Program-made: the position numbers and the translations under genes
From: an uncultured Candidatus Saccharibacteria bacterium
Lineage (GTDB): Bacteria; Patescibacteriota; WWE3; UBA101185; UBA10185
Length of the DNA stretch: 64,000 bases
Assembly: GCA_964643995.1 (NCBI GenBank)
Contig: CAZXUJ010000001.1
Location: 5,622-69,621 of the forward strand
Direction: 5' to 3'
Notes under the pieces: generated by a model
Told to the model about the DNA's origin: nothing
Seen by the model: only the letters and a program-made list of their open reading frames with translations
Databases searched by the model: none
Shown: positions 3,655 to 44,455 of the stretch, in pieces
Numbering within the stretch: the first letter of the stretch is position 1
Layout of the letters: each line of letters begins with the position of its first letter

Positions 3655-4596
3655 ATGAGTTTCTGGCATAATCTAGAAAAACCAATTTCATGTCTCGCAC
3701 CAATGTATGACGTCACCGACGTAGTATTTAGGCAGATAATTGCCGAAACTGCAAAACCAGCTGTTATGTTTACGGAGTTTGTCAACACCGACGCATTTAT
3801 TTCTGCGGGAAGATCTAAAATCGAATCAAAGCTTTGGCATACTCCACCTCAAACACCCGTTGTTGCGCAGATTTGGGGAATAAACCCTGATTCATACCGC
3901 AAGACTGCCCAAGAGTTAGCACAAATGGGATTCGCAGGAATTGATATAAACATGGGCTGTCCCCAAAAGTCAGAAATGAAAATAGGTGCATGTGCTGCCC
4001 TAATAAGTAACCCAGATTTAGTGAAGGAAATAATCGCCGCTACAAAACAAGGAGCTGGAGATTTACCAGTAAGCGTAAAAACTCGTATTGGGCTAAAAAA
4101 AGTGAATACAGAAGAATGGATTTCATTTCTATTGAAGCAAGATATTTCCGCCTTAACTATTCATGCGCGTACAGCATCACAAATGTCAGACGTGCCTGCA
4201 GATTGGTCGCAAATTGCCAAAGCCGTTAAGTTGAAGAATATTATAAATCCAAAAACTATTATTATTGGAAATGGAGATGTAAAAGATTGTGTTCATGGAA
4301 AAAGCTTGTGTAATGAAACCGGTGCAGATGGATACATGATTGGTCGAGGAATATTTGAAAACCCATGGGCATTCACACACCCGGTCAGAGAGATCGAAAA
4401 CCGCCGTGAGAAGCTGTTACGATTAGCTGTCAAACACTTAGAACTTTATAAGGACACGTATAAAGGTGAACGAAACTACAACATTATGAAAAAATTTTTT
4501 AAAATCTATGCTCGTGATTTTGAAGGTGCCGGAGAATTAAGAGCAAAGCTTATGGATACTAACAGTGAGGAAGCAGCTATTTCAATTTTGTCTTAA
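3655..4596 (+). CDS. dus: tRNA-dihydrouridine synthase
   Basis: LAPMYDVTDVVFR (Dus LAPMAGVTD motif), FMN/TIM-barrel motifs GIDINMGCPQK and VSVKTRIG. Start chosen at an internal Met upstream of LAPM. Confidence 0.8.
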   Translation: MSFWHNLEKPISCLAPMYDVTDVVFRQIIAETAKPAVMFTEFVNTDAFISAGRSKIESKLWHTPPQTPVVAQIWGINPDSYRKTAQELAQMGFAGIDINMGCPQKSEMKIGACAALISNPDLVKEIIAATKQGAGDLPVSVKTRIGLKKVNTEEWISFLLKQDISALTIHARTASQMSDVPADWSQIAKAVKLKNIINPKTIIIGNGDVKDCVHGKSLCNETGADGYMIGRGIFENPWAFTHPVREIENRREKLLRLAVKHLELYKDTYKGERNYNIMKKFFKIYARDFEGAGELRAKLMDTNSEEAAISILS

Positions 4597-5723: not shown

Positions 5724-6743
5724 CTATTGTTTAAGGAAATTCAAGCGGCTGCTAAATGTTGTTATATCAGTAAAGTTTGAAAGATCTAGCAGTTTTATGT
5801 CGATTTTCTCCCCAGAAGACTTGCTGGAATCCCATTGTTTTGGAGATAGAATCCTTTCATAAAGCTTACCACCGTCCTGTTCTAGCACGCCTACACCAGC
5901 CCAAAACTTAGCTTTAGAGGTTGATATAGAACCAATATCAATTCCATTTGGAATTGGGTTTGAGAATAGAACTATTTTGTCCTCGCCACGTACAAATTCT
6001 TTTCGTTTACTTAGTTTCAAGTATGCGTCACTCCAATACAGCAAGTTATCATATAATGTATCGAAACTAACTTTATCTGCATCGGTATAGTCTACGGCCC
6101 CTTTCATCATAAAGTTGAAATCAGCAAATTTCTTGATTCGTTCTTTACGTTCTAATGTTAGTCCGGTTTCCTTCAATTCCTCAAATAATGCACGGTATTC
6201 ATTTCTATATTCTAGTTCGGAATACATATCTGGGACTACCTGCTTGAGCTCCATTTTCATGTTCTTAGGGAAATATTTCTGAAATTCTGTGATCAAACTT
6301 TTGAATGATTCCACATATTTATCTAGTGATTCACGTGGATAATTGTCTATTAACTCAATGCATACGTCATCGGATGAAAAGTAGAATTCCACGCCCGGTT
6401 CATATGAGGCCAAGATTGGGGCAACATATCGGCTAACATACGAGATGACGAAAAACTCGGCCCAGTCGACATATGGGTACGATTCAACCCGCCAAATTTT
6501 GTAACCGCCAAATGGATAGGTGAATTTTATTGGCTCATTCTTTGCAACATTTAAAGCTATCGCTTCTTGTACCCTTTTTTGAGAATCTTCATCAACCTTG
6601 GTTTTGCGAAATTTCTTGGAGGTTACTTTGCTGTAGATAAACTTTTCAATACCTTCGAATTGTATAGTTTTTTTCTCCTCGTCAGACAACGTATATTTTG
6701 TTGGATTTTTTAGTCTGTCTTCTAGATGTTCTTGTGCTGTCAT
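5724..6743 (-). CDS. Hypothetical protein (339 aa), downstream of LmbE-Nudix gene in same orientation
   Basis: Long ORF with protein-like composition; no family recognised. Confidence 0.45.
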   Translation of the reverse strand: MTAQEHLEDRLKNPTKYTLSDEEKKTIQFEGIEKFIYSKVTSKKFRKTKVDEDSQKRVQEAIALNVAKNEPIKFTYPFGGYKIWRVESYPYVDWAEFFVISYVSRYVAPILASYEPGVEFYFSSDDVCIELIDNYPRESLDKYVESFKSLITEFQKYFPKNMKMELKQVVPDMYSELEYRNEYRALFEELKETGLTLERKERIKKFADFNFMMKGAVDYTDADKVSFDTLYDNLLYWSDAYLKLSKRKEFVRGEDKIVLFSNPIPNGIDIGSISTSKAKFWAGVGVLEQDGGKLYERILSPKQWDSSKSSGEKIDIKLLDLSNFTDITTFSSRLNFLKQ

Positions 6744-14915: not shown

Positions 14916-14990
14916 TGGAGCGAGAGACGGGGATCGAACCCGCGACCTCTTCCTTGGCAAGGAAGCGTTCTACCACTGAACTACTCTCGC
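14916..14990 (-). tRNA. tRNA-Gly (anticodon GCC)
   Basis: Reverse complement GCGAGAGTAGTTCAGTGGTAGAACGCTTCCTTGCCAAGGAAGAGGTCGCGGGTTCGATCCCCGTCTCTCGCTCCA; anticodon stem CTTCC/GGAAG, loop TTGCCAA. Confidence 0.85.
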
Positions 14991-15047
14991 GAGCAAAGCG
15001 AGTGAGAGGTAGTGATGTACTCATCACGTCACTCTCGCAATCAAGCT
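14991..15047 (-). promoter_or_regulatory. Conserved structured leader/upstream element of tRNA-Gly(GCC) (hairpin GTGATG-TACT-CATCAC)
   Basis: Immediately 5' of the tRNA on the minus strand. Homologous element at 39809-39868 upstream of tRNA-Gly(CCC) with a compensatory T:A to C:G change. Confidence 0.45.
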
Positions 15048-15753
15048 AACGTCTAATATACATTACCTTTAATCCACTATCAATCGCTTGACGGACTCTG
15101 CTACAATGCCAACTAATGGATTGTCCATGCCTGTAAGGTCTACAACAGTCATGTTCATCGAGACCTCTATTGGGAACTGCGCACGGCCACACCACCATTC
15201 AAACTTGATATATCAGAATCTGTCTACAACCCATCTCTTGAGCTTTTGTGTGAACTAGACTTAAAACAAAATATGGAGATATTACGTATTCTGACTACCT
15301 ACGAATGCATAACCAAAGTGTTTTAGTGCGTACTCTGTTTGTGCACCATGACTATGAAATTTTTCAAACTGCGGTTATGGAGCTACAACTAGATGCTTAT
15401 GTAAGCGAGGACATACAAGTGCAGCTCGGCTTTTTTCATGATGCGTAGCGTAGAGAGGATATTTTAACTCTCGATGATCCTGATACGATTCAGTAGCTGC
15501 TTGATGAATACACTAGTTTAGAGGATCCCTTATCTATCAATGAATTCAAAACCAAATATAGTAACCATATGTCATCTATAAGATTTATGCAAATATGTGC
15601 AACGAGGTATCCTAAGGAAAAATATCGTTCGCGAGATCCGAACTCTGGCGAGACTCTTGAATACTCACATGAACATCACCAGAACACACCAATATCCATG
15701 TCTGAAATGCTTGCGATATTTGCTTTCCCCTACATTTTAAATACAATTAATTC

Positions 15754-37259: not shown

Positions 37260-37279
37260 GTCATCAATGTGTTGATGAC
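37260..37279. promoter_or_regulatory. Perfect 8-4-8 palindrome GTCATCAA-TGTG-TTGATGAC overlapping the serine recombinase start codon
   Basis: Seen directly; position suggests an operator or recombinase-binding site. Confidence 0.4.
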
Positions 37280-38579
37280 AGAACAAGAAAATAAAAATCT
37301 AAAGTATTGTCTCTATGCTAGAAAATCTACTGAAAGTGATGAACGACAAGCAATGTCAATAGATTCCCAAATCAAAGAAATGATGGAACAGGCTAACAAA
37401 GAAGGTCTGAATATTGTTGAAATTCGCCAAGAAAGCCATTCCGCTAAACTTTCAGGGGCTAGGCCAGTGTTTAAACAATTGATCTATGACATAGATAAAG
37501 GATTATTCAATGCAATTCTTACTTGGGCACCAGACAGACTAAGTAGAAACGCAGGAGATTTGGGGGCTTTAGTTGATTTAATGGATCGTAAACAACTTTT
37601 GCACATCAAAACCTATTCCCAGACATTTTCCAACAATCCAAACGAAAAGTTTCTTCTTATGATTCTTTGTTCTCAGGCTAAGCTTGAAAATGATCACAGA
37701 GGTGAAAATGTTAAACGGGGTATTAGAGCAAAATGTGAACGAGGTTGGAGACCCTGCATGTCTCCACTTGGTTATCATAATAGAACGATAAATGGAGTTA
37801 ACGATCTTGTATTAGATGAGGTTAAAGCTCCCATCTTACGGGAAATGTTTGAATTGGTTGCATACTGTGGGTTTAGCGGGCGCTCTGTTAAAAGATATTT
37901 AGATAAGGAAAAGAACTTTCTATCAAGACGGGGCAAAAAGTTAGCGCTTGGGAGACTTTACGAAATTCTTAAAAATCCATTTTACTGTGGGGATTTTGAA
38001 TATCCTGTTGGAAGTGGAAACTGGTACAAAGGAAAACACGAACCCCTAATAACCAGAGAACTATTCAACAAAGTACAAGAAAAGCTGGCCACTTCTGATA
38101 AACCAAATTCAGAAAAACATGACTTTCCGTTCACACGAACAATAAGATGTTCAACCTGCGGATCGCACCTTACGGGAGAGGAAAGAACAAAGCAATTAAA
38201 GAATGGAAACAGAGTTAAGTATGTTTATTATCACTGTCTGCGTGGCAAGGACAAAGACTTTGACTGCAAGGAACCCTATATCCGTGAGGATGACCTGGTA
38301 ACACAATTAGTTGAAATTATTAACGAGGTGGAAATCGATAAGGATGCTTTTACTAAACTTTTACAGGAGGAATATACAAGGTTTGCAAAATTTAAAGCTA
38401 TTTTAAACGAAGATTCTCAAAATAATGAAGAAAAGCAAAGGCTAAAAGAAATTGATATTAAAACTTTTGCAAAACACATTTTAAGATTCGGATCTAATCA
38501 GGAAAGAAGGGAAATCTTTACATTAATTAAGCAACCACTTTATCTTAAGAACATGAAACTGTATGTACACATTAACTAG
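37269..38579 (+). CDS. Large serine recombinase (resolvase/invertase catalytic domain + recombinase domain + zinc ribbon)
   Basis: YARKSTESDERQAMSIDSQ (catalytic Ser region), RLSRN, Cys cluster CSTCGSH...YYHC. Annotated start is GTG; alternative ATG at 37275. Confidence 0.8.
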   Translation: MLMTEQENKNLKYCLYARKSTESDERQAMSIDSQIKEMMEQANKEGLNIVEIRQESHSAKLSGARPVFKQLIYDIDKGLFNAILTWAPDRLSRNAGDLGALVDLMDRKQLLHIKTYSQTFSNNPNEKFLLMILCSQAKLENDHRGENVKRGIRAKCERGWRPCMSPLGYHNRTINGVNDLVLDEVKAPILREMFELVAYCGFSGRSVKRYLDKEKNFLSRRGKKLALGRLYEILKNPFYCGDFEYPVGSGNWYKGKHEPLITRELFNKVQEKLATSDKPNSEKHDFPFTRTIRCSTCGSHLTGEERTKQLKNGNRVKYVYYHCLRGKDKDFDCKEPYIREDDLVTQLVEIINEVEIDKDAFTKLLQEEYTRFAKFKAILNEDSQNNEEKQRLKEIDIKTFAKHILRFGSNQERREIFTLIKQPLYLKNMKLYVHIN

Positions 38580-39513
38580 TTTTTAACTCTTTTAATAGGA
38601 ATTTTACCCAATCATGATACCAGTACCAATTTTTACCTACATAATTTCCGTAACCTTTTACAGGATCTTTAGCGTTATGTTTTCTCCATAAGTCCGTATG
38701 TGTACTAATCGATATGTTTATTCCTTTTATTTTAAGTTCGTTTATAACCTCTCTAGCTAAAAATAACTTTTCTTTTTTTTCTTTTATAACCACATATTCT
38801 TTACTAATGTTTTTAGCTAACGGTGAGTTAGGGTCAATAAATTCGATAACTCTATCTGCTTGACCCGATCTGTTCGCTGATACCTTTGTAAATAACAGTC
38901 TATATGCGAATCTCTCGTTTTTTAATTCTTCTGACTCCAGTTTGTCGTCAAATGCAGCTACATATGTTCTTATATTCTTGGATATCAATTTATCTTTGTT
39001 TTTGATTACTTGCATTTGGTCAAAATCTAATTCCGCGAATTGTAGGCTCAGCGCAAGATTATTATCCAGACCCTTTTTATCTCCATGAAGAAGCTTAAGA
39101 TAGAAGTTGTAGTTTAACGCGCATGCCTGATATCGTGCGGACATATAAGAATCAAGACCTTGCGCTTTTCTATGTTCAATCTGATTTCGTAATCCTATCA
39201 AAAACTGTAAATTATTTTTTGTATTTTTGTCCAATGGGCTCGCTGTATTGGAAACGCACTCCTGTAGATCCCAGTATTTTATACTTCCATCAGGATTCTT
39301 AATGTACCTTTTTCTATTTCCTTTTCCAGTATGGTATCTATATTCAATAGCGTGTTCTTTGTAGTAAGCGTGAAGTAAATAAGTCCATGCAATCATAGCT
39401 AAAACAATGAATGATTCAGACTTAAACATTATTAATGGGTTATTATATATCTGCACTGCAGATAACATAGCTTCCCGTGATTTATCAATTAGGTCAATTT
39501 TTTCTGCACGCAT
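38572..39513 (-). CDS. Hypothetical protein (313 aa), convergent with serine recombinase
   Basis: ORF only; its 3' end overlaps the recombinase 3' end by 8 bp. Confidence 0.4.
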   Translation of the reverse strand: MRAEKIDLIDKSREAMLSAVQIYNNPLIMFKSESFIVLAMIAWTYLLHAYYKEHAIEYRYHTGKGNRKRYIKNPDGSIKYWDLQECVSNTASPLDKNTKNNLQFLIGLRNQIEHRKAQGLDSYMSARYQACALNYNFYLKLLHGDKKGLDNNLALSLQFAELDFDQMQVIKNKDKLISKNIRTYVAAFDDKLESEELKNERFAYRLLFTKVSANRSGQADRVIEFIDPNSPLAKNISKEYVVIKEKKEKLFLAREVINELKIKGINISISTHTDLWRKHNAKDPVKGYGNYVGKNWYWYHDWVKFLLKELKTS

Positions 39514-39733
39514 ATTTTATATAAACCCCTAGTATGGATTATATCAAGCAACAACAAGTATTTTGGAACGGTCGGAACTTTGGACATAACCTAGGGTCAG
39601 ACGAGTCTGTAAATAGCAAATATTTTTGCTAAAAACGGCAGTAAAAGTATGATAATTTATGGTAACCCAAACGAGTCAGTTGGAACTTCAAGCAAAAACC
39701 TAGGGAGACGGAACGGTCGGAACTTCAAACATC

Positions 39734-39808
39734 TGGAGCGAGGAACGGGGTTCGAACCCGCGACCTCTTCCTTGGGAAGGAAGCATTCTACCACTGAACT
39801 ATCCTCGC
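39734..39808 (-). tRNA. tRNA-Gly (anticodon CCC)
   Basis: Reverse complement GCGAGGATAGTTCAGTGGTAGAATGCTTCCTTCCCAAGGAAGAGGTCGCGGGTTCGAACCCCGTTCCTCGCTCCA; loop TTCCCAA; differs from tRNA-Gly(GCC) at a handful of positions. Confidence 0.85.
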
Positions 39809-39868
39809 AACAAAGTGAAGAGGAGTAGCGATGTACTCATCGCGTCATCCTCGCAACAAAGTGAAATC
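39809..39868 (-). promoter_or_regulatory. Conserved structured leader of tRNA-Gly(CCC) (hairpin GCGATG-TACT-CATCGC) with flanking ~20-nt direct repeat
   Basis: Homolog of 14991-15047. Direct repeat (c/t)atcctcgcaacaaagtgaa at 39802-39821 and 39849-39868. Confidence 0.45.
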
Positions 39869-41315
39869 ATTCTGCTGCAAATACTGGCAGTGCACTTGAA
39901 TATAGCAGATACATAGATTTTGTAATATAGGCAGGTTTAAGTTTGTTAATTTCTTCAAGCTTCTCGGTTTTTTCCTCTGGTGACATATTGCGAGCACCTA
40001 AACCGTTTATTGAGTAGTACAGATCATCATATCTGGTCAAGATCTGTTCCTCTACGGGCAAATCCATCTCTCGGGTTTTCTCATCCTGAAGAGCAATAGA
40101 TAAGTTGTCATTGACCTCACCCATTCTACGCAGTGCCCTTTGTCCATAACTTTGAGCTATAACCGCCATAGTCCAAGCCGACTCCATACGTGCATTGTAC
40201 CTCTCGATTTCTAAGGCGCTCTCTTGTTCTTCAACATTTTTTACTTCATTTGCTAACTCCAAAACATTGTTTCGAAGTGACATGTATGCACTTTGAAATG
40301 AATCCGTAAGTGGTTTGCTCCAACGCAAGTTCAATAAAACATATCTATCAAATGAACCTGCTGCTACAGTTTTGACTTCAAACTCAGTTCCTTGTTCTTC
40401 CAGATACTCCTTAAGACTGTCACTATCAGACTCTTTAAATTTTTGTAAAAATTCTGCATCGAATATCTCTGAAGGAGATAACAGATCAGCACAATACAAA
40501 ACTGCTGCGGCCCTACTCGTTGGTCTTTCATATTTACCTGCATGCCAGGTATCAAAAAGCTTTTTCTGATATTCCGTTAGATTACCAGATGCATAATCAT
40601 TCTCAGAAGGAACCGCGATTTTAGCCTTGGCCCATTTGTGCCCAGGATCCTCTACTGCCGAAGTGAGTGCAGATGCAACGAAGGGCATAGCTTGGTGTTC
40701 AATTATCATATTTGATACTTGATTAATGTCCTCTTTCTTTAGTCCGGCAACACTTAGTATATTTGAGGCCTCTTCGGCTGACCAAATATGATGCCACAAC
40801 AGACGTTCTTCTTCACTTGTAAAAATTCTATTTTTTTGAACATCATGCAACATAGCACCAAGTTCAGTCAATCTGCGATCTTTAGTCGATAAGGGTAGTA
40901 GGCGCTCCCCCTCTATAAGGTCAGCCTCCGAGTGCGCAACAAGTGCAGATGATAACTCCTTGTAACCAATTATTCTCCCTGTAGCTGGGTTGATCTTTAC
41001 TGTTCTAGTCGACGCTAAGCCTCCAAACTCAGCAGCCATAGAGGCTACCAAAGCCACATGCTTATTGTTCATTTCTATCGCTTCTTTTGAGAAAGTGGGT
41101 GATTCCATAGTTGCCTCGTACCATTGTTCTATACCGAGGAACGCATAGGCAATTGTGTTTACCTCTTCTTTAAGCATATTGAACTCATCGTCAGTAAGCT
41201 CATCAATTTCTTTTGATAATTTACCCTTTTCATTAAAGGGCAAATCTATTTTTGTACCTTCAGGAATATAATGTGCAGAATATTCGGGCAAAATAGTATT
41301 TACTGGAGAACTCAT
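39867..41315 (-). CDS. Hypothetical protein, possible HD-domain phosphohydrolase
   Basis: GAMLHDVQK resembles the HD-domain LLHDIGK motif; otherwise unassigned. Confidence 0.35.
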   Translation of the reverse strand: MSSPVNTILPEYSAHYIPEGTKIDLPFNEKGKLSKEIDELTDDEFNMLKEEVNTIAYAFLGIEQWYEATMESPTFSKEAIEMNNKHVALVASMAAEFGGLASTRTVKINPATGRIIGYKELSSALVAHSEADLIEGERLLPLSTKDRRLTELGAMLHDVQKNRIFTSEEERLLWHHIWSAEEASNILSVAGLKKEDINQVSNMIIEHQAMPFVASALTSAVEDPGHKWAKAKIAVPSENDYASGNLTEYQKKLFDTWHAGKYERPTSRAAAVLYCADLLSPSEIFDAEFLQKFKESDSDSLKEYLEEQGTEFEVKTVAAGSFDRYVLLNLRWSKPLTDSFQSAYMSLRNNVLELANEVKNVEEQESALEIERYNARMESAWTMAVIAQSYGQRALRRMGEVNDNLSIALQDEKTREMDLPVEEQILTRYDDLYYSINGLGARNMSPEEKTEKLEEINKLKPAYITKSMYLLYSSALPVFAAE

Positions 41316-42713: not shown

Positions 42714-42747
42714 AGGTTTAAGCTGGAATGAAAATGATTATAGCAGA

Positions 42748-44439
42748 TTACCAACTACCCCCACCACCACCGCCACCACCCCCTCCAGAGGATCCACCTG
42801 AAAAACCACTAGAAAAACCCGAAGAGCTTCTTGTAGGAGTCATAGCCAATTGTACGGTTGAATTCATCTTAGTTGTCAGAGCATTAAGCATTACTAGATC
42901 ACTAGTACCCTCAACCCAAGTAGCCTCGCTTAGATTAAGGTCAGGGAATCTTTTTATCCAAACATCTTCAACACCGAAGGCAGTTGCATAAGGTAAAAGT
43001 TTTTCAAAATACATCTGTCTCTCAGCTTGAAAATCATACTGGGCATCTTGTGTGACAATAAAATTTTTTAATGATTGCGCATAGGAATACTGCTCTATAC
43101 CTTTTTCCGTAAGTTGTTGATTCTTTTTAACTACAATCAGCGCAACCAACAAAAGAGGCAAATTTAGTAACATGAACATCGGAATACTTAATAAACCTAC
43201 GAGATTATTTATTTCATCAAGGGATCTTTTTGAGTCACCCCGCTTTTTTAAACTTTGCCCTAGGCTTTTTTTGCACTTATTTATCGCAGTTATAAACTTC
43301 GAATTGTTTTTTAATGACGCTAGTTCGATTTTATTATCTTCCAAAGTTCCAGTGCTAAAGAACGCATCGAAAAGCTCAATTTCAAAATGAAGCAGTTCTG
43401 AATCGGGCTCCTTCAATTTTTGTAGGTAAATCTTATCTTTTGAAAATAGTCCCTTGTTATCTTCATAGATTATTTTAAGATATCCTTTTTGCGCCAGTTG
43501 GATAATAGTTGCTGTAATGTGTTTATTTGTAATGGCTGGATTTACCAATAAAGCGGTTTCAGCTGGCGCATATAGCTTACCTTCTGTCGTTTTGGGTGGA
43601 TCAAACCAAGCTGCTACAATACGTGCAGTCTTCTTTACTTTTTGTAAATCGCGAAAGTTTCGTATAAAAACATAAAAAGGTAATAATATATAAAACGCAA
43701 AAGCAAACATCCAGAGCAAAACTTGAACTACTGGATTAATTAAATGATATTCAACAGGTTCGATTACTTGAACGTAACCTTTTGGTATACCAATAACAAC
43801 TGTTACGCCCTCATTAGGTAACAAGGGTCTAGTTGTAGAAATTTTTAACATACCGCTCTCAAATCTAGACGTACAGTCAGACTCGGTTGACCCGGAATAT
43901 CCCGTGAAACAGTTAAATTTAACGTCAGCATCAGATATACCCTCAGGTAACAATACAACTGCACTAAACTCATTAACAGGTACGTCCCATCCATTTCCTA
44001 AAACATTCCAATATAACTCATCGTGATCAGAAAAATACGTTAGTGCCCCGGTAACAGAATATCTAATGTTGTAGTTGTTAATACCAGTCACATAAATATC
44101 AGGATGTCCAATCTTTAACACAATCTGTTCGGTTTCCTGGCTAAGTGAATATGTTTCGTCTCTATTGGTTTGATTTTCTACAGAAAAATTCTCAAAGGAC
44201 ATGCGAAACTTTTTATTGGCACTGTTAGTTTTTACAAATGGTATTTCACGAAAAATGCCATGTTTTTGAAGAATACCAAAATCATACAAGATATTTTCCT
44301 GAAAATTTACAACGCCTGATTCTGTAATATGTACGACTACATCGTACTCAGTTATGGATTCTTGAGCCAGAGCATGTTGTGCGGCGAAAAAAGTAACAAA
44401 AAGCAAAACAGGTAAAACAAAAAGTTTAGTTTTATACAT
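42748..44439 (-). CDS. DUF2207-like membrane protein with C-terminal poly-Gly tail
   Basis: Signal/TM, extracellular domain, TM helices, C-terminus SGFSGGSSGGGGGGGGGGSW. Start trimmed to Met 44439 because the longer ORF overlaps tRNA-Leu on the same strand. Confidence 0.55.
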   Translation of the reverse strand: MYKTKLFVLPVLLFVTFFAAQHALAQESITEYDVVVHITESGVVNFQENILYDFGILQKHGIFREIPFVKTNSANKKFRMSFENFSVENQTNRDETYSLSQETEQIVLKIGHPDIYVTGINNYNIRYSVTGALTYFSDHDELYWNVLGNGWDVPVNEFSAVVLLPEGISDADVKFNCFTGYSGSTESDCTSRFESGMLKISTTRPLLPNEGVTVVIGIPKGYVQVIEPVEYHLINPVVQVLLWMFAFAFYILLPFYVFIRNFRDLQKVKKTARIVAAWFDPPKTTEGKLYAPAETALLVNPAITNKHITATIIQLAQKGYLKIIYEDNKGLFSKDKIYLQKLKEPDSELLHFEIELFDAFFSTGTLEDNKIELASLKNNSKFITAINKCKKSLGQSLKKRGDSKRSLDEINNLVGLLSIPMFMLLNLPLLLVALIVVKKNQQLTEKGIEQYSYAQSLKNFIVTQDAQYDFQAERQMYFEKLLPYATAFGVEDVWIKRFPDLNLSEATWVEGTSDLVMLNALTTKMNSTVQLAMTPTRSSSGFSSGFSGGSSGGGGGGGGGGSW

Positions 44440-44455
44440 ATATAAATTTTTCTTA

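Follow-up and report, generated by a model that had tools for sequence, protein, structure and literature searches.

Transfer RNA precursors carry 5' leaders that are removed by RNase P, and ordinary leaders of this kind are unconserved, are not specific to a single tRNA identity and contain no replica of the acceptor stem. The leader hairpin described here, hereafter the stub, occupies the same place, bounded upstream by a promoter, a gene or another tRNA and downstream by position +1 of a tRNA-Gly gene. Like those leaders, it ends in a short pyrimidine-rich single strand at the cleavage site and is presumably discarded, but it differs from them in conservation, specificity and acceptor-stem content.

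Several described systems share part of this arrangement. The thrS operator and T-box leaders also copy or read part of a specific tRNA in leader RNA, but the genes they precede are synthetase or amino-acid genes, and what they mimic or bind is the anticodon arm or the NCCA end, whereas the stub precedes the tRNA itself and replicates the acceptor helix alone. Minihelix substrates of RNase P have in common with the stub a coaxial helix, a G at +1 with a pyrimidine before it, a single-stranded 3' tail and the closing pairs of an acceptor stem. However, the stub lacks the 3' RCCA and the T-loop of such substrates and of tRNA punctuation, any cleavage there is hypothetical, and the known substrates are not bound to one tRNA species, as the stub is. 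In boxB-boxA leaders (rrn operons, lambda nut sites), a variable hairpin and a conserved single-stranded motif likewise lie early in a transcript that is highly expressed and untranslated; in contrast, the stub has no verified boxA match, also occurs in mid-operon, and has the sequence of its hairpin base set by the tRNA. Lastly, tRNA pseudogenes and partial tandem duplicates resemble the stub in that both acceptor strands are copied in tRNA order, but ordinary pseudogene fragments decay, whereas the stub has stayed at orthologous sites through deep divergence, paired by way of compensatory changes and matched to its functional tRNA. No published description of the element was found in the literature searched, and the stub is apparently an undescribed leader element conserved across many ultra-small bacteria of the candidate phyla radiation (CPR).

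The two tRNA-Gly leaders of the window

The window, which is the whole stretch of 64,000 nucleotides that was analysed, comes from a Patescibacteria (CPR) chromosome and holds eight true tRNA genes, these being all the tRNA calls made by ARAGORN and Rfam. An rRNA operon is absent from the window (Rfam) and from every relative locus retrieved. Chromosomal genes adjoin both tRNA-Gly loci, and the features of each locus are given below in the 5' to 3' order of the minus strand.

Copy 1, upstream of tRNA-Gly(GCC):
15055..15083, minus strand: promoter-like site of tRNA-Gly(GCC), TTGATA-17-TATATT (promoter scan, 10/12 matches)
15031..15038, minus strand: 5' arm (A1), GCGAGAG (15038-15032) and T, an exact copy of tRNA-Gly(GCC) positions 1-8
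15009..15030, minus strand: inner part, GAC GTGATG AGTA CATCAC TAC (folding)
15002..15008, minus strand: 3' arm (A'1), CTCTCAC, a copy of the 3' acceptor strand (CTCTCGC) in which A replaces G71
14991..15001, minus strand: spacer, TCGCTTTGCTC (comparison with L038, L027, L032 and L087)
14916..14990, minus strand: tRNA-Gly(GCC) (ARAGORN; Rfam RF00005, 72 bits), with acceptor stem GCGAGAG/CUCUCGC, U73 and encoded CCA (ARAGORN)

Copy 2, upstream of tRNA-Gly(CCC):
39899..39926, minus strand: promoter-like site of tRNA-Gly(CCC), ATTACA-16-TATATT (promoter scan)
39855..39866, minus strand: X1, TTTCACTTTGTT, an upstream copy of the immediate leader of the tRNA
39847..39854, minus strand: 5' arm (A1), GCGAGGA (39854-39848) and T, an exact copy of tRNA-Gly(CCC) positions 1-8
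39825..39846, minus strand: inner part, GAC GCGATG AGTA CATCGC TAC, one compensatory pair away from copy 1
39820..39824, minus strand: 3' arm (A'1), TCCTC, equal to tRNA-Gly(CCC) positions 66-70 and pairing with GAGGA of A1
39809..39819, minus strand: spacer (X2), TTCACTTTGTT, running up to tRNA position +1
39734..39808, minus strand: tRNA-Gly(CCC) (ARAGORN; Rfam), with acceptor stem GCGAGGA/UCCUCGC, U73 and encoded CCA

Both copies have the same order of parts, namely A1, a variable inner hairpin, A'1 paired with A1, a spacer of 9-11 nt, and the tRNA. In copy 1, A1 reproduces the 5' acceptor strand and U8 of tRNA-Gly(GCC), CUCUC of A'1 pairs with GAGAG of A1, and the inner part folds into a 6-bp stem with an AGUA loop, enclosed by a 4x3 internal loop. 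The spacer of this copy, which is homologous to the family spacer UCRCUUYGYUC, opens with a discriminator-like U and then a C, and stops at the tRNA's RNase P site.

The original prediction placed a hairpin 5' of both tRNA-Gly genes, with inner stems one compensatory pair apart, and the sequences agree (U-A in copy 1, C-G in copy 2). It also had the first 8-20 nt of the tRNA repeated about 48 nt upstream, as if the tRNA 5' end were duplicated around the hairpin. The duplication is borne out by the exact copy of positions 1-8 in both stubs, but only 8 nt of the repeat are tRNA, to which copy 2 adds 11 nt of leader, X1 with A1 and the following T making up a 19-nt perfect direct repeat. The spacing is 48 nt in copy 1 (14 nt repeated at 86% identity) and 46 nt in copy 2 (19 nt at 100% identity). 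The predicted range of 14916-15050 takes in the tRNA itself, the leader element proper being 14991-15041. What had been missed is that the outer stem covaries too (GAGAG/CUCUC against GAGGA/UCCUC), in each copy equalling the acceptor stem of the adjacent tRNA.

The compensatory change had been offered as a sign of function, but inner-stem covariation alone is weak evidence. The 22-mer core occurs twice in the window at up to three mismatches, against 0 expected. Folding z-scores are -1.8 for copy 1 and -2.6 for copy 2, and -3.2 and -3.5 when the stubs are trimmed to A1 through A'1 (copy 1 being represented in the trimmed run by row L089, which is identical to it); taken alone, the z-scores of both window hairpins are modest.

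Promoter-like sites upstream of both copies provide a predicted context that is consistent with transcription of the stub. For copy 1, the -10 box at 15060-15055 would place the start about 10 nt before the stub, and the promoter-region sequence aaaggtaatgTATATTagac is likewise present in an orthologous locus (L087). The site of copy 2 has an extended TG (TGcTATATT, 39907-39899) and sits inside the last codons of an HD-domain ORF (39867-41315); about 65 nt of this region are invariant at the DNA level in four orthologues, the rest of the coding sequence having diverged.

A number of other identities were considered and rejected. At gathering or E-value thresholds, Rfam yields no match that would make the leader a known RNA family or a T-box riboswitch, and the gene downstream is the tRNA itself; an E-value scan of the leader for a tRNA (RF00005) or tRNA-like gene finds the tRNA alone. 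Neither stub combines a GC-rich hairpin with a U tract as an intrinsic terminator does, and no terminator-like site was seen at either, the tails being UCGCUUUGCUC and UUCACUUUGUU. A phage origin was set aside, as a search against phage DNA matched the tRNA only and the neighbours are chromosomal; scans of viral sequence with the hairpin core and the tRNA pattern returned nothing. The repeats flank only 27 nt of hairpin and no att repeat was found, which argues against an att scar or island boundary; a recombinase-bearing island lies on the 3' side of tRNA-Gly(CCC), away from the stub. In copy 2, GAGGA, 7 nt and an ATG opening 13 codons that end within the tRNA suggested a leader peptide, a candidate that was dropped because neither the ATG nor the frame is retained in S-type and L-type stubs.

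Distribution and structure of the stub in relatives

Relatives were scanned by way of the tRNA as anchor, blind to the leader, and distinct leaders were counted with a lenient stub detector. Stubs were found in 23-24 of 64 distinct tRNA-Gly(GCC/CCC) leaders, in 0 of 5 tRNA-Gly(TCC) leaders, in 6 of 171 leaders of other tRNAs (two of the six being artefacts) and in 22 of 4250 shuffled leaders (0.5%). An exact upstream copy of the tRNA's own acceptor 7-mer is present at 12 of 33 tRNA-Gly genes as opposed to 0 of 78 other tRNAs, and the 8-mer GCGAGRRT exceeds chance only at tRNA position +1 and within the 130 nt upstream of +1. A covariance model, R1, with only hairpins in its building set, recovers in the window with filters off just the two copies (35.4 and 32.7 bits), the next match being the tRNA itself at 11 bits; over 459 kb of loci it gives 27 matches at E<1e-3, all directly upstream of tRNA-Gly. 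Dispersed REP- or MITE-like repeats are rejected on these grounds, the copies found by R1 lying only directly upstream of tRNA-Gly and the 8-mer being at chance elsewhere.

Among the tRNAs scanned, then, the stub is restricted to tRNA-Gly(GCC/CCC). The search of relatives and other tRNAs and the covariance model had both been proposed as checks: the module does recur before tRNA-Gly, and R1 matches only sites directly upstream of it. The alternative that had been raised, of only two copies resulting from a recent segmental duplication, fails, since the two loci have unrelated flanks, the two tRNAs differ at 7 positions, orthologues of both loci exist elsewhere, and the module is present in roughly a third of the tRNA-Gly leaders of related Patescibacteria. 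The presence of the same arrangement before only glycine tRNAs in many CPR bacteria likewise argues against chance as well as against recent duplication. The S-type stem UAAGCAAAGCUUG is found again in loci labelled Saccharibacteria and WWE3. No stub is present in about 60% of the loci whose tRNA-Gly fits the same 42-nt 5' pattern, implying that it is dispensable or often lost. A possible stub analogue is seen at tRNA-Leu(AAG) in L020 and L085.

Twenty-five distinct stubs have 22 different inner sequences and a median folding z of -4.1 (position-matched controls, -0.7). The 5' arm corresponds to tRNA positions 1-8 and the 3' arm to positions 66-72 (5-7 nt), with a U73-like U and a C usually next in line. 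In 20-22 of 23 stubs, pairs 3:70 to 7:66 are retained, the observed level of covariation is attained by 0 of 500 shuffles, and 79% of cells pair in register, as compared with 39-50% when the partners are slid. Three acceptor states occur (GAGAG, GAGGA and GAGGG), each mirrored by the local stub, and among tRNAs with variant acceptor stems no stub with a non-matching sequence was seen. The stub is a conserved structured cis-RNA element whose compensatory changes across homologues exceed controls, and on this point both window copies and the relatives uphold the original prediction.

Orthologues, origin and turnover

In orthologues of copy 2, the neighbouring protein is 90% (L001), 69% (L002) and 56% (L004) identical, and the module is in the same place in all. 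The inner 23 nt are identical at 23 of 23 positions in L001 and L002, and are wholly replaced by another hairpin in L004, where the spacer X2 is unchanged from the window; X2 differs at one of 11 positions in L001 and at two in L002. For copy 1, an orthologue recovered through the upstream regulator gene (L087) has identical stems, and only its loop differs, being ATTA. The retention in both sets of orthologues speaks for purifying selection on the module, as does the recurrence of the S-type stem. For copy 1, Logan contigs reached from the racemase-like gene downstream end within the tRNA or the stub repeat.

The arms of the stub are identical to the adjacent tRNA and stand in tRNA order, as in a partial tandem duplicate, and possible intermediate forms exist. 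For instance, 18 nt of the tRNA 5' end are copied in L036, L037 has a tRNA-Gly-like pseudogene without the T arm, and L052 an interrupted pseudo-tRNA-Gly with a stub on each side; L022, among the loci with tandem stubs or pseudo-tRNA fragments, is also counted as an intermediate, and tandem stubs are found in L065 and L081. The stub most probably arose as a truncated tandem tRNA-Gly copy in an early Patescibacteria lineage, and the duplication that gave the CCC gene from the GCC gene most probably carried the stub along.

Perfect direct repeats of 19-25 nt (window copy 2, L001 and L018) and the tandem stubs point to active turnover at the DNA level, which could mimic selection for matching. 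The stub might be a relic with no function: a partial tandem tRNA-Gly duplicate in decay that is re-copied by slippage or unequal crossing-over of the repeated 5' ends, with pairing kept passively since an unpaired arm would poison tRNA folding. Perfect repeats of 19 and 25 nt, the pseudo-tRNA fragments and tandem stubs (L036, L037, L022, L052, L065, L081) and the frequent lack of a stub in related loci are in keeping with this account, as is L001, where the same T-to-A change is found in both repeat copies and the 3' arm has not caught up with the 5' arm, leaving an A.C mismatch. However, in streamlined genomes repeats 46 nt apart should soon delete the stub, whereas it persists at orthologous sites where protein identity has fallen to 56%; the inner 23 nt of copy 2 are invariant beside coding DNA that has diverged to about 60% identity; the same inner stem is present in different CPR classes; and, the possible tRNA-Leu(AAG) analogue aside, nothing comparable was found at the 171 other tRNAs. 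A relic is unlikely.

Candidate roles of the stub

The reading that is tentatively preferred, at somewhat less than an even chance, is that the stub is a leader hairpin from a truncated tRNA-Gly copy that has been retained in the tRNA-Gly precursor as a cis-acting component. It would be transcribed within that precursor and would probably act in precursor stability, in processing, or in insulation of tRNA folding. Each tRNA-Gly gene would be driven by its own promoter, and the stub, being transcribed first, would fold locally, locking both acceptor-strand replicas together so that neither invades the real acceptor stem. The precursor would then consist of a stable 5'-proximal helix and a conserved single-stranded spacer of 9-14 nt presenting the RNase P site, with stub and spacer removed together by RNase P. 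Slippage between the direct repeats, or their unequal exchange, would keep the 5' arm identical to the tRNA, and the 3' arm would follow through selection for pairing. A generic stabilising or processing role alone leaves unexplained why the helix equals the acceptor stem and why it is restricted to tRNA-Gly.

The stub helices are of at least 11 bp, with internal loops, and have a G at +1 in 22 of 23 stubs and a U or C at -1 in most. Hairpins such as pre-4.5S RNA and models of the acceptor and T stems are cut by bacterial RNase P, and by analogy the stub may be a second RNase P site, a minihelix-type substrate cut at its G1 that would punctuate the transcript and release a hairpin with a 3' tail, itself perhaps functional. 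The coaxial helix, the G at +1 and the pyrimidine at -1 fit such a substrate, as do the UC after the 3' arm, similar to U73-C74, and the fact that the leader before the stub equals the leader before the tRNA (X1 and X2 in copy 2 of the window, also L018 and L052). On the other hand, the 3' RCCA is missing after the stub, and many predicted transcripts start only 3-10 nt before it, so that a cut there would achieve little. RNase P also does not read the stem sequence, and the match to the tRNA and the restriction to tRNA-Gly are therefore left unexplained. A second site is distinctly unlikely.

In the MFE structure of leader plus tRNA, A1 is paired with the tRNA 3' strand, which makes the stub a potential competitor of correct folding and not an obvious helper. 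The same pairing would be used by an attenuator-like switch, in which A1, A'1, A2 (the tRNA 5' strand) and A'2 (the tRNA 3' strand) adopt alternative pairings: 1:2 with 3:4 would give stub and tRNA, 2:3 with 1:4 a misfolded or 5'-extended tRNA, and a trans factor binding the stub would choose between these states. The identities of A1 with A2 and of A'1 with A'2 are exactly those needed and are maintained when the tRNA acceptor changes. Moreover, A1 is conserved across all 7 nt although only 5 nt pair within most stubs, but homogenisation of the repeats accounts for this conservation just as well. At -14 to -28 kcal/mol, the stub hairpin greatly exceeds the 2:3 hairpin in stability and would form first in transcription, and we know of no candidate ligand or factor. 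Such a switch is quite improbable.

The spacer and the position of the module bear on antitermination, which the original prediction had suggested as a possible function besides processing. In a boxB-boxA-type or anti-Rho leader, the hairpin together with the single-stranded spacer would bring Nus factors to the tRNA operon; the stub does combine a hairpin with a conserved pyrimidine-rich single-stranded motif near the promoter, and the spacers CGCUUUG and CACUUUG and the flank GCUGUUUGACAAC of L018 bear a putative resemblance to boxA consensus sequences. The module, however, also lies between tRNAs in mid-operon (L014, L038, L070 and L085), and Nus binding needs no resemblance to an acceptor stem; a role of this type is highly improbable.

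A final possibility is that a released stub mimics the acceptor end of tRNA-Gly, as a chargeable minihelix or as a decoy for GlyRS, for enzymes that use Gly-tRNA, or for toxins that read the acceptor stem. The pairs G1-C72 and C2-G71 together with U73 are the bacterial GlyRS acceptor determinants, and U73 and G71 are determinants of TacT (PMC9976931). The restriction to tRNA-Gly suits this proposal, and L014, L038, L052, L065b and L070 retain both pairs and a U73-like U, L028 retaining both pairs with an A at the U73 position. In the family at large, however, pair 2:71 is retained in just 7 of 23 stubs, no stub is followed by an encoded CCA, and the anticodon determinants C35 and C36 are missing. 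The window copies lack the full set of G1-C72, C2-G71, U73 and CCA, copy 1 having C2.A71 and copy 2 being without 1:72 and 2:71 pairing, and mimicry of the acceptor end is extremely unlikely.

Beyond the reading preferred above, the stub might be the sensor arm of a switch on acceptor-stem formation in tRNA-Gly or, in the intact-helix subfamily, a released charged or decoy minihelix-Gly, but this is decidedly improbable. The reader of the acceptor-stem replica in the sensor-arm version would be GlyRS, RNase P or another Gly-specific protein. The minihelix version covers the subfamily with intact G1-C72, C2-G71 and U73, determinants that the window copies do not have; in that subfamily the released stub would be a naturally encoded minihelix that either receives a CCA tail and is charged or serves as a decoy.

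Leaders of tRNAs are usually seen as disposable and unconserved, whereas the stub is conserved across Patescibacteria classes, belongs to one tRNA identity and is matched to its acceptor stem. It represents a clear natural case of a retained tRNA-derived minihelix, and as such bears on the place of minihelices in tRNA evolution. In practical terms, the stub repeat breaks short-read assemblies at tRNA-Gly, as seen in the Logan contigs that end within it, and the covariance model R1 can be used to annotate the element. Were the switch reading true, the maturation of a single tRNA species would be regulated in bacteria with minimal genomes. If the stub is functional, organisms with genomes of about 1 Mb devote a separate cis-element to the biogenesis of a single tRNA, and the element would offer an experimentally tractable handle on tRNA processing in a phylum that is still little cultivated.

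Acceptor-stem replicas in two tRNA-Gly leaders

The window encodes two glycine tRNAs, identified by ARAGORN and Rfam, each preceded by a hairpin in its 5' leader (hereafter the stub), in which a 5' arm (A1) and a pairing 3' arm (A'1) flank an inner hairpin:

14990-14916, minus strand: tRNA-Gly(GCC), preceded by copy 1, GCGAGAG-T-GAC-GTGATG-AGTA-CATCAC-TAC-CTCTCAC-TCGCTTTGCTC
39808-39734, minus strand: tRNA-Gly(CCC), preceded by copy 2, TGA(stop)-TTTCACTTTGTT-GCGAGGA-T-GAC-GCGATG-AGTA-CATCGC-TAC-TCCTC-TTCACTTTGTT

The original prediction held that the inner stems differ by a compensatory change and that the tRNA 5' end is repeated upstream. Both points are borne out: comparison of the leaders finds the inner stems set apart by one compensatory pair, and a repeat finder recovers direct repeats in both leaders, perfect over 19 nt at 46-nt spacing in copy 2 and 86% identical over 14 nt at 48-nt spacing in copy 1. 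Overlooked in that prediction was the outer stem, which covaries too (GAGAG/CUCUC in copy 1, GAGGA/UCCUC in copy 2). In both copies, this stem corresponds to positions 3-7 and 66-70 of the downstream tRNA, and A1 is an exact replica of tRNA positions 1-8. With up to 3 mismatches allowed, the 22-nt core is found at two sites in the window (0 expected), both of them the stubs. Copy 2 also contains a GAGGA followed 7 nt on by an ATG and a 13-codon frame (MSTSLLLFTLLRG; 39838-39800, minus strand) that stops at a TAG within the tRNA; the frame is probably fortuitous, because other stub types do not conserve it.

A conserved leader hairpin specific to tRNA-Gly(GCC/CCC)

The stub is a conserved leader hairpin specific to tRNA-Gly(GCC/CCC); its arms are replicas of the acceptor stem and keep matching it. 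A pattern drawn from the tRNA only, run over genome and metagenome collections, yielded 64 distinct tRNA-Gly leaders. An exact upstream replica of the gene's own acceptor 7-mer is present for 12 of 33 tRNA-Gly genes versus 0 of 78 other tRNAs, and a lenient stub detector picks out 23-24 of the 64 Gly(GCC/CCC) leaders, 0 of 5 Gly(TCC) leaders, 6 of 171 leaders of other tRNAs (2 being artefacts of an adjacent tRNA) and 22 of 4250 shuffled leaders. Of the GCGAGRRT 8-mers, 78 are at tRNA-Gly position +1 and 28 fall no more than 130 nt upstream of it on that strand, the 50 others in 520 kb being at chance level. A covariance model built from the stub alignment, run on the window with filters off, returned copies 1 and 2 and no other site; run on 459 kb of other loci, it returned 27 matches at E<1e-3, all 27 directly upstream of tRNA-Gly. 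Rfam holds no family for the stub. What lies upstream of the stub differs between loci: some stubs follow a promoter, others the CCA end of a tRNA-Leu or the stop codon of an ORF, indicating that the element is tied to tRNA-Gly itself. At another tRNA, tRNA-Leu(AAG) with acceptor strand GGGCGAG, the promoter is preceded by a possible analogous acceptor-like hairpin, GGGCGAC-TTTTTAGA-CTCGC, a sequence homologous between two loci (L020, ~4520-4545, and L085, where the tRNA is at 690-773).

Among the 25 distinct stubs, 22 inner sequences are represented. All 25 stubs fold as hairpins, with a median free energy of -15.4 kcal/mol and a median z of -4.1, compared with a median z of -0.7 when the corresponding segment is taken from 40 leaders that lack a stub. 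In an alignment of 23 stubs that left out the tRNA sequence, pairs 3:70 to 7:66 are retained in 20-22 stubs, 1:72 is a G-C pair in 11 stubs and a G-U pair in 10, and pair 2:71 is retained in only 7. Both partners change at 6:67, at 7:66 and at inner pairs, and the observed covariation was reached by 0 of 500 shuffles; 79% of cells pair in register versus 39-50% with partners slid. It could be supposed that the stub is an acceptor-stem decoy or a chargeable minihelix. However, the bacterial Gly acceptor determinants are G1-C72, C2-G71 and U73 (PMC9976931), and only a minority of the stubs keep them intact, neither copy 1 nor copy 2 among them. This weakens the idea, and we regard such a role as extremely improbable.

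The family shares a plan of A1 (7 nt, usually followed by U), a variable hairpin of 3-40 nt, A'1, and a spacer to tRNA position +1. A'1 comes in two flavours, the first being CUCUCGC-U-C..., a full 7-bp replica with a U73/C74-like UC and then the spacer UCRCUUYGYUC, and the second CUCUC-UU and then a further small hairpin (GAUG-loop-CAUC) ending at position -2. The 12-mer GAUGAGUACAUC is this further hairpin in loci L025 and L051, and the inner hairpin in the window stubs. Small hairpins with an AGUA tetraloop are found on four different stems (GAUG, GYGAUG, ACG and GUCCCG) at differing positions in tRNA-Gly leaders (window 15018-15021 and 39834-39837; L025, L051, L053 and L022).

Orthologous loci, promoters and gene neighbourhood

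Homologues of the HD-domain gene that lies just upstream of copy 2 fall into only three clusters, with 90% (L001), 69% (L002) and 56% (L004) identity, and the order of stop codon, stub, spacer and tRNA-Gly(CCC) is retained in all three contigs. The inner 23 nt are the same as in the window in the 90% and 69% relatives. In the case of L004, where the acceptor stem is GCGAGGG/CCCUCGC, the stub reads GCGAGGG-AU-AUGUGCUG-UUUA-CAGCCAUA-C-CCCUC, with an inner hairpin wholly different from that of the window, closed by L004's own acceptor sequence, and the same following spacer (UUCACUUUGUU) as in the window. In L001, a T to A change is common to both copies of the direct repeat, and the 3' arm keeps the L004-like C, creating an A.C mismatch; this arrangement suggests that the 5' arm is homogenised at the DNA level, with the 3' arm catching up through compensation. 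For copy 1, the orthologous locus L087 (neighbouring protein 83% identical) has identical stems, the loop AUUA versus AGUA, and the spacer UCACUUCGUUC, the form found in Saccharibacteria-labelled loci. At orthologous sites, purifying selection acts on stub and spacer.

The final ~65 nt of the HD ORF (39870-39935, minus strand) are invariant at the DNA level in four genomes (the window, L001, L002 and L004), in an alignment where the rest of the coding sequence is strongly diverged. A promoter scan independently found ATTACA-16-TGcTATATT within this stretch, indicating that coding constraint acts together with constraint on an extended -10 promoter of the downstream tRNA. Upstream of copy 1, the scan found a promoter-like TTGATA-17-TATATT ending 16 nt before A1. 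Thus, both stubs are predicted to lie within 5' leaders of dedicated tRNA-Gly transcripts, with starts placed from these promoter-like sites. A hairpin so placed might be a boxB/boxA-type antitermination leader, a role we regard as very improbable.

The genes adjoining the two loci are chromosomal, encoding a racemase-like protein, a PMT_2 glycosyltransferase, a GlmM-type mutase, the HD-domain protein and a winged-helix regulator, and phage searches with window DNA gave no match besides the tRNA. A pattern drawn from the tRNA body alone, and hence blind to the leader, found 27 loci at one genome per species, nearly all labelled Patescibacteria/CPR (Saccharibacteria, WWE3, Kazan, Microgenomates and Nomurabacteria). 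The window tRNA order, Arg-Lys-Leu-Leu ... Gly ... Gly-Phe-Val, agrees with Saccharibacteria-labelled loci, as does a DUF2207-like gene. The genes concerned here and below are:

42714-44455, minus strand: DUF2207-like gene with a poly-glycine tail (...GGGGGGGGGGSW, then stop), between tRNA-Leu(GAG) and the tRNA-Gly locus
38572-39513, minus strand: DUF3644 gene, beyond the tRNA-Gly(CCC) 3' end
37269-38579, plus strand: large serine recombinase, beyond the tRNA-Gly(CCC) 3' end

The linkage of this Gly-rich-tail gene to a glycine tRNA is conserved; it directly adjoins stub and tRNA-Gly(GCC) in Saccharibacteria-labelled loci (those listed being L016, L025, L032, L053, L062 and L082), and the window has the GlmM and HD genes in between. 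A Saccharibacteria-labelled contig (L027) carries, directly after tRNA-Gly(GCC), an ARAGORN 'tRNA-???' with a 2-nt anticodon (1744-1817). In the window, the stub and tRNA-Gly modules form direct repeats bracketing ~25 kb (14916-39866), an interval that splits the Leu-Leu-DUF2207-Gly-Phe arrangement otherwise conserved in relatives. Synteny with L001, here 93% identical, ends exactly at the tRNA-Gly(CCC) 3' end (39734), with unrelated genes in L001 where the window has the DUF3644 gene and recombinase. This segment (37269-39733, with a probable extension further down) probably represents a genomic island at the 3' end of the tRNA; the search for an att repeat gave none. Public Logan short-read contigs of the organism and close relatives stop inside the tRNA-Gly/stub repeat (L010, 1-70; L089, 1-120; L008 and L009). 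The element breaks up assemblies, and MAGs will often lack it.

Origin and putative role of the stub

Tandem stubs, two each, are found in L065 and L081. In L052, the region ~170-20 nt upstream of an intact tRNA-Gly at 1297 holds a stub, a pseudo-tRNA-Gly (D-loop broken by a ~52-57 nt insertion, truncated past the anticodon) and a second stub. Other loci carry, upstream of the real gene, a tRNA-Gly-like sequence that lacks a T arm but has a CCA end (L037, ~2610-2660), an 18-nt replica of the 5' end of the tRNA together with its pairing near-complement (L036, ~6020-6092), or separate copies of GCGAGA and the D-arm GTTCAGTGGTAG (L022, ~515-584). Such arrangements are consistent with an origin through partial tandem duplication of tRNA-Gly and ongoing unequal exchange among the repeats. 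The stub might then be a non-functional, self-perpetuating relic, which we consider unlikely. Our tentatively favoured reading is that it is an exapted tRNA-derived leader hairpin. By itself, exaptation leaves the restriction to tRNA-Gly unexplained; the restriction would be historical, one ancient duplication having been passed to the GCC and CCC genes.

As an exapted leader, the stub would be transcribed first and fold locally, locking both acceptor-strand replicas together such that neither competes with the real acceptor stem. In the minimum-free-energy fold of leader plus tRNA, A1 pairs with the tRNA 3' strand, so this competition is real in silico; the same pairing could be that of an attenuator-like switch on acceptor-stem formation, a very doubtful proposition. 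In the resulting precursor, a stable helix near the 5' end would be followed by the conserved, single-stranded spacer at the RNase P site, and RNase P would take off both. That the stub provides a second site for RNase P, or is released as a small RNA, is distinctly unlikely; it resembles minihelix-type RNase P substrates in look, but its sequence lacks their RCCA. Tested as a tRNA, a T-box, a REP-like repeat and an att scar, the stub matched none of these, and there is no terminator at the stub.

In how it would work, the exapted leader may be likened to structured tRNA-precursor leaders. We rate the stub class as a cis-acting leader RNA derived from tRNA; neither in Rfam nor in the searchable literature did we find it described. 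While its role is putative, a specialist on tRNA would find its conservation, its restriction to glycine tRNAs and the matching of its arms to the acceptor stem surprising.
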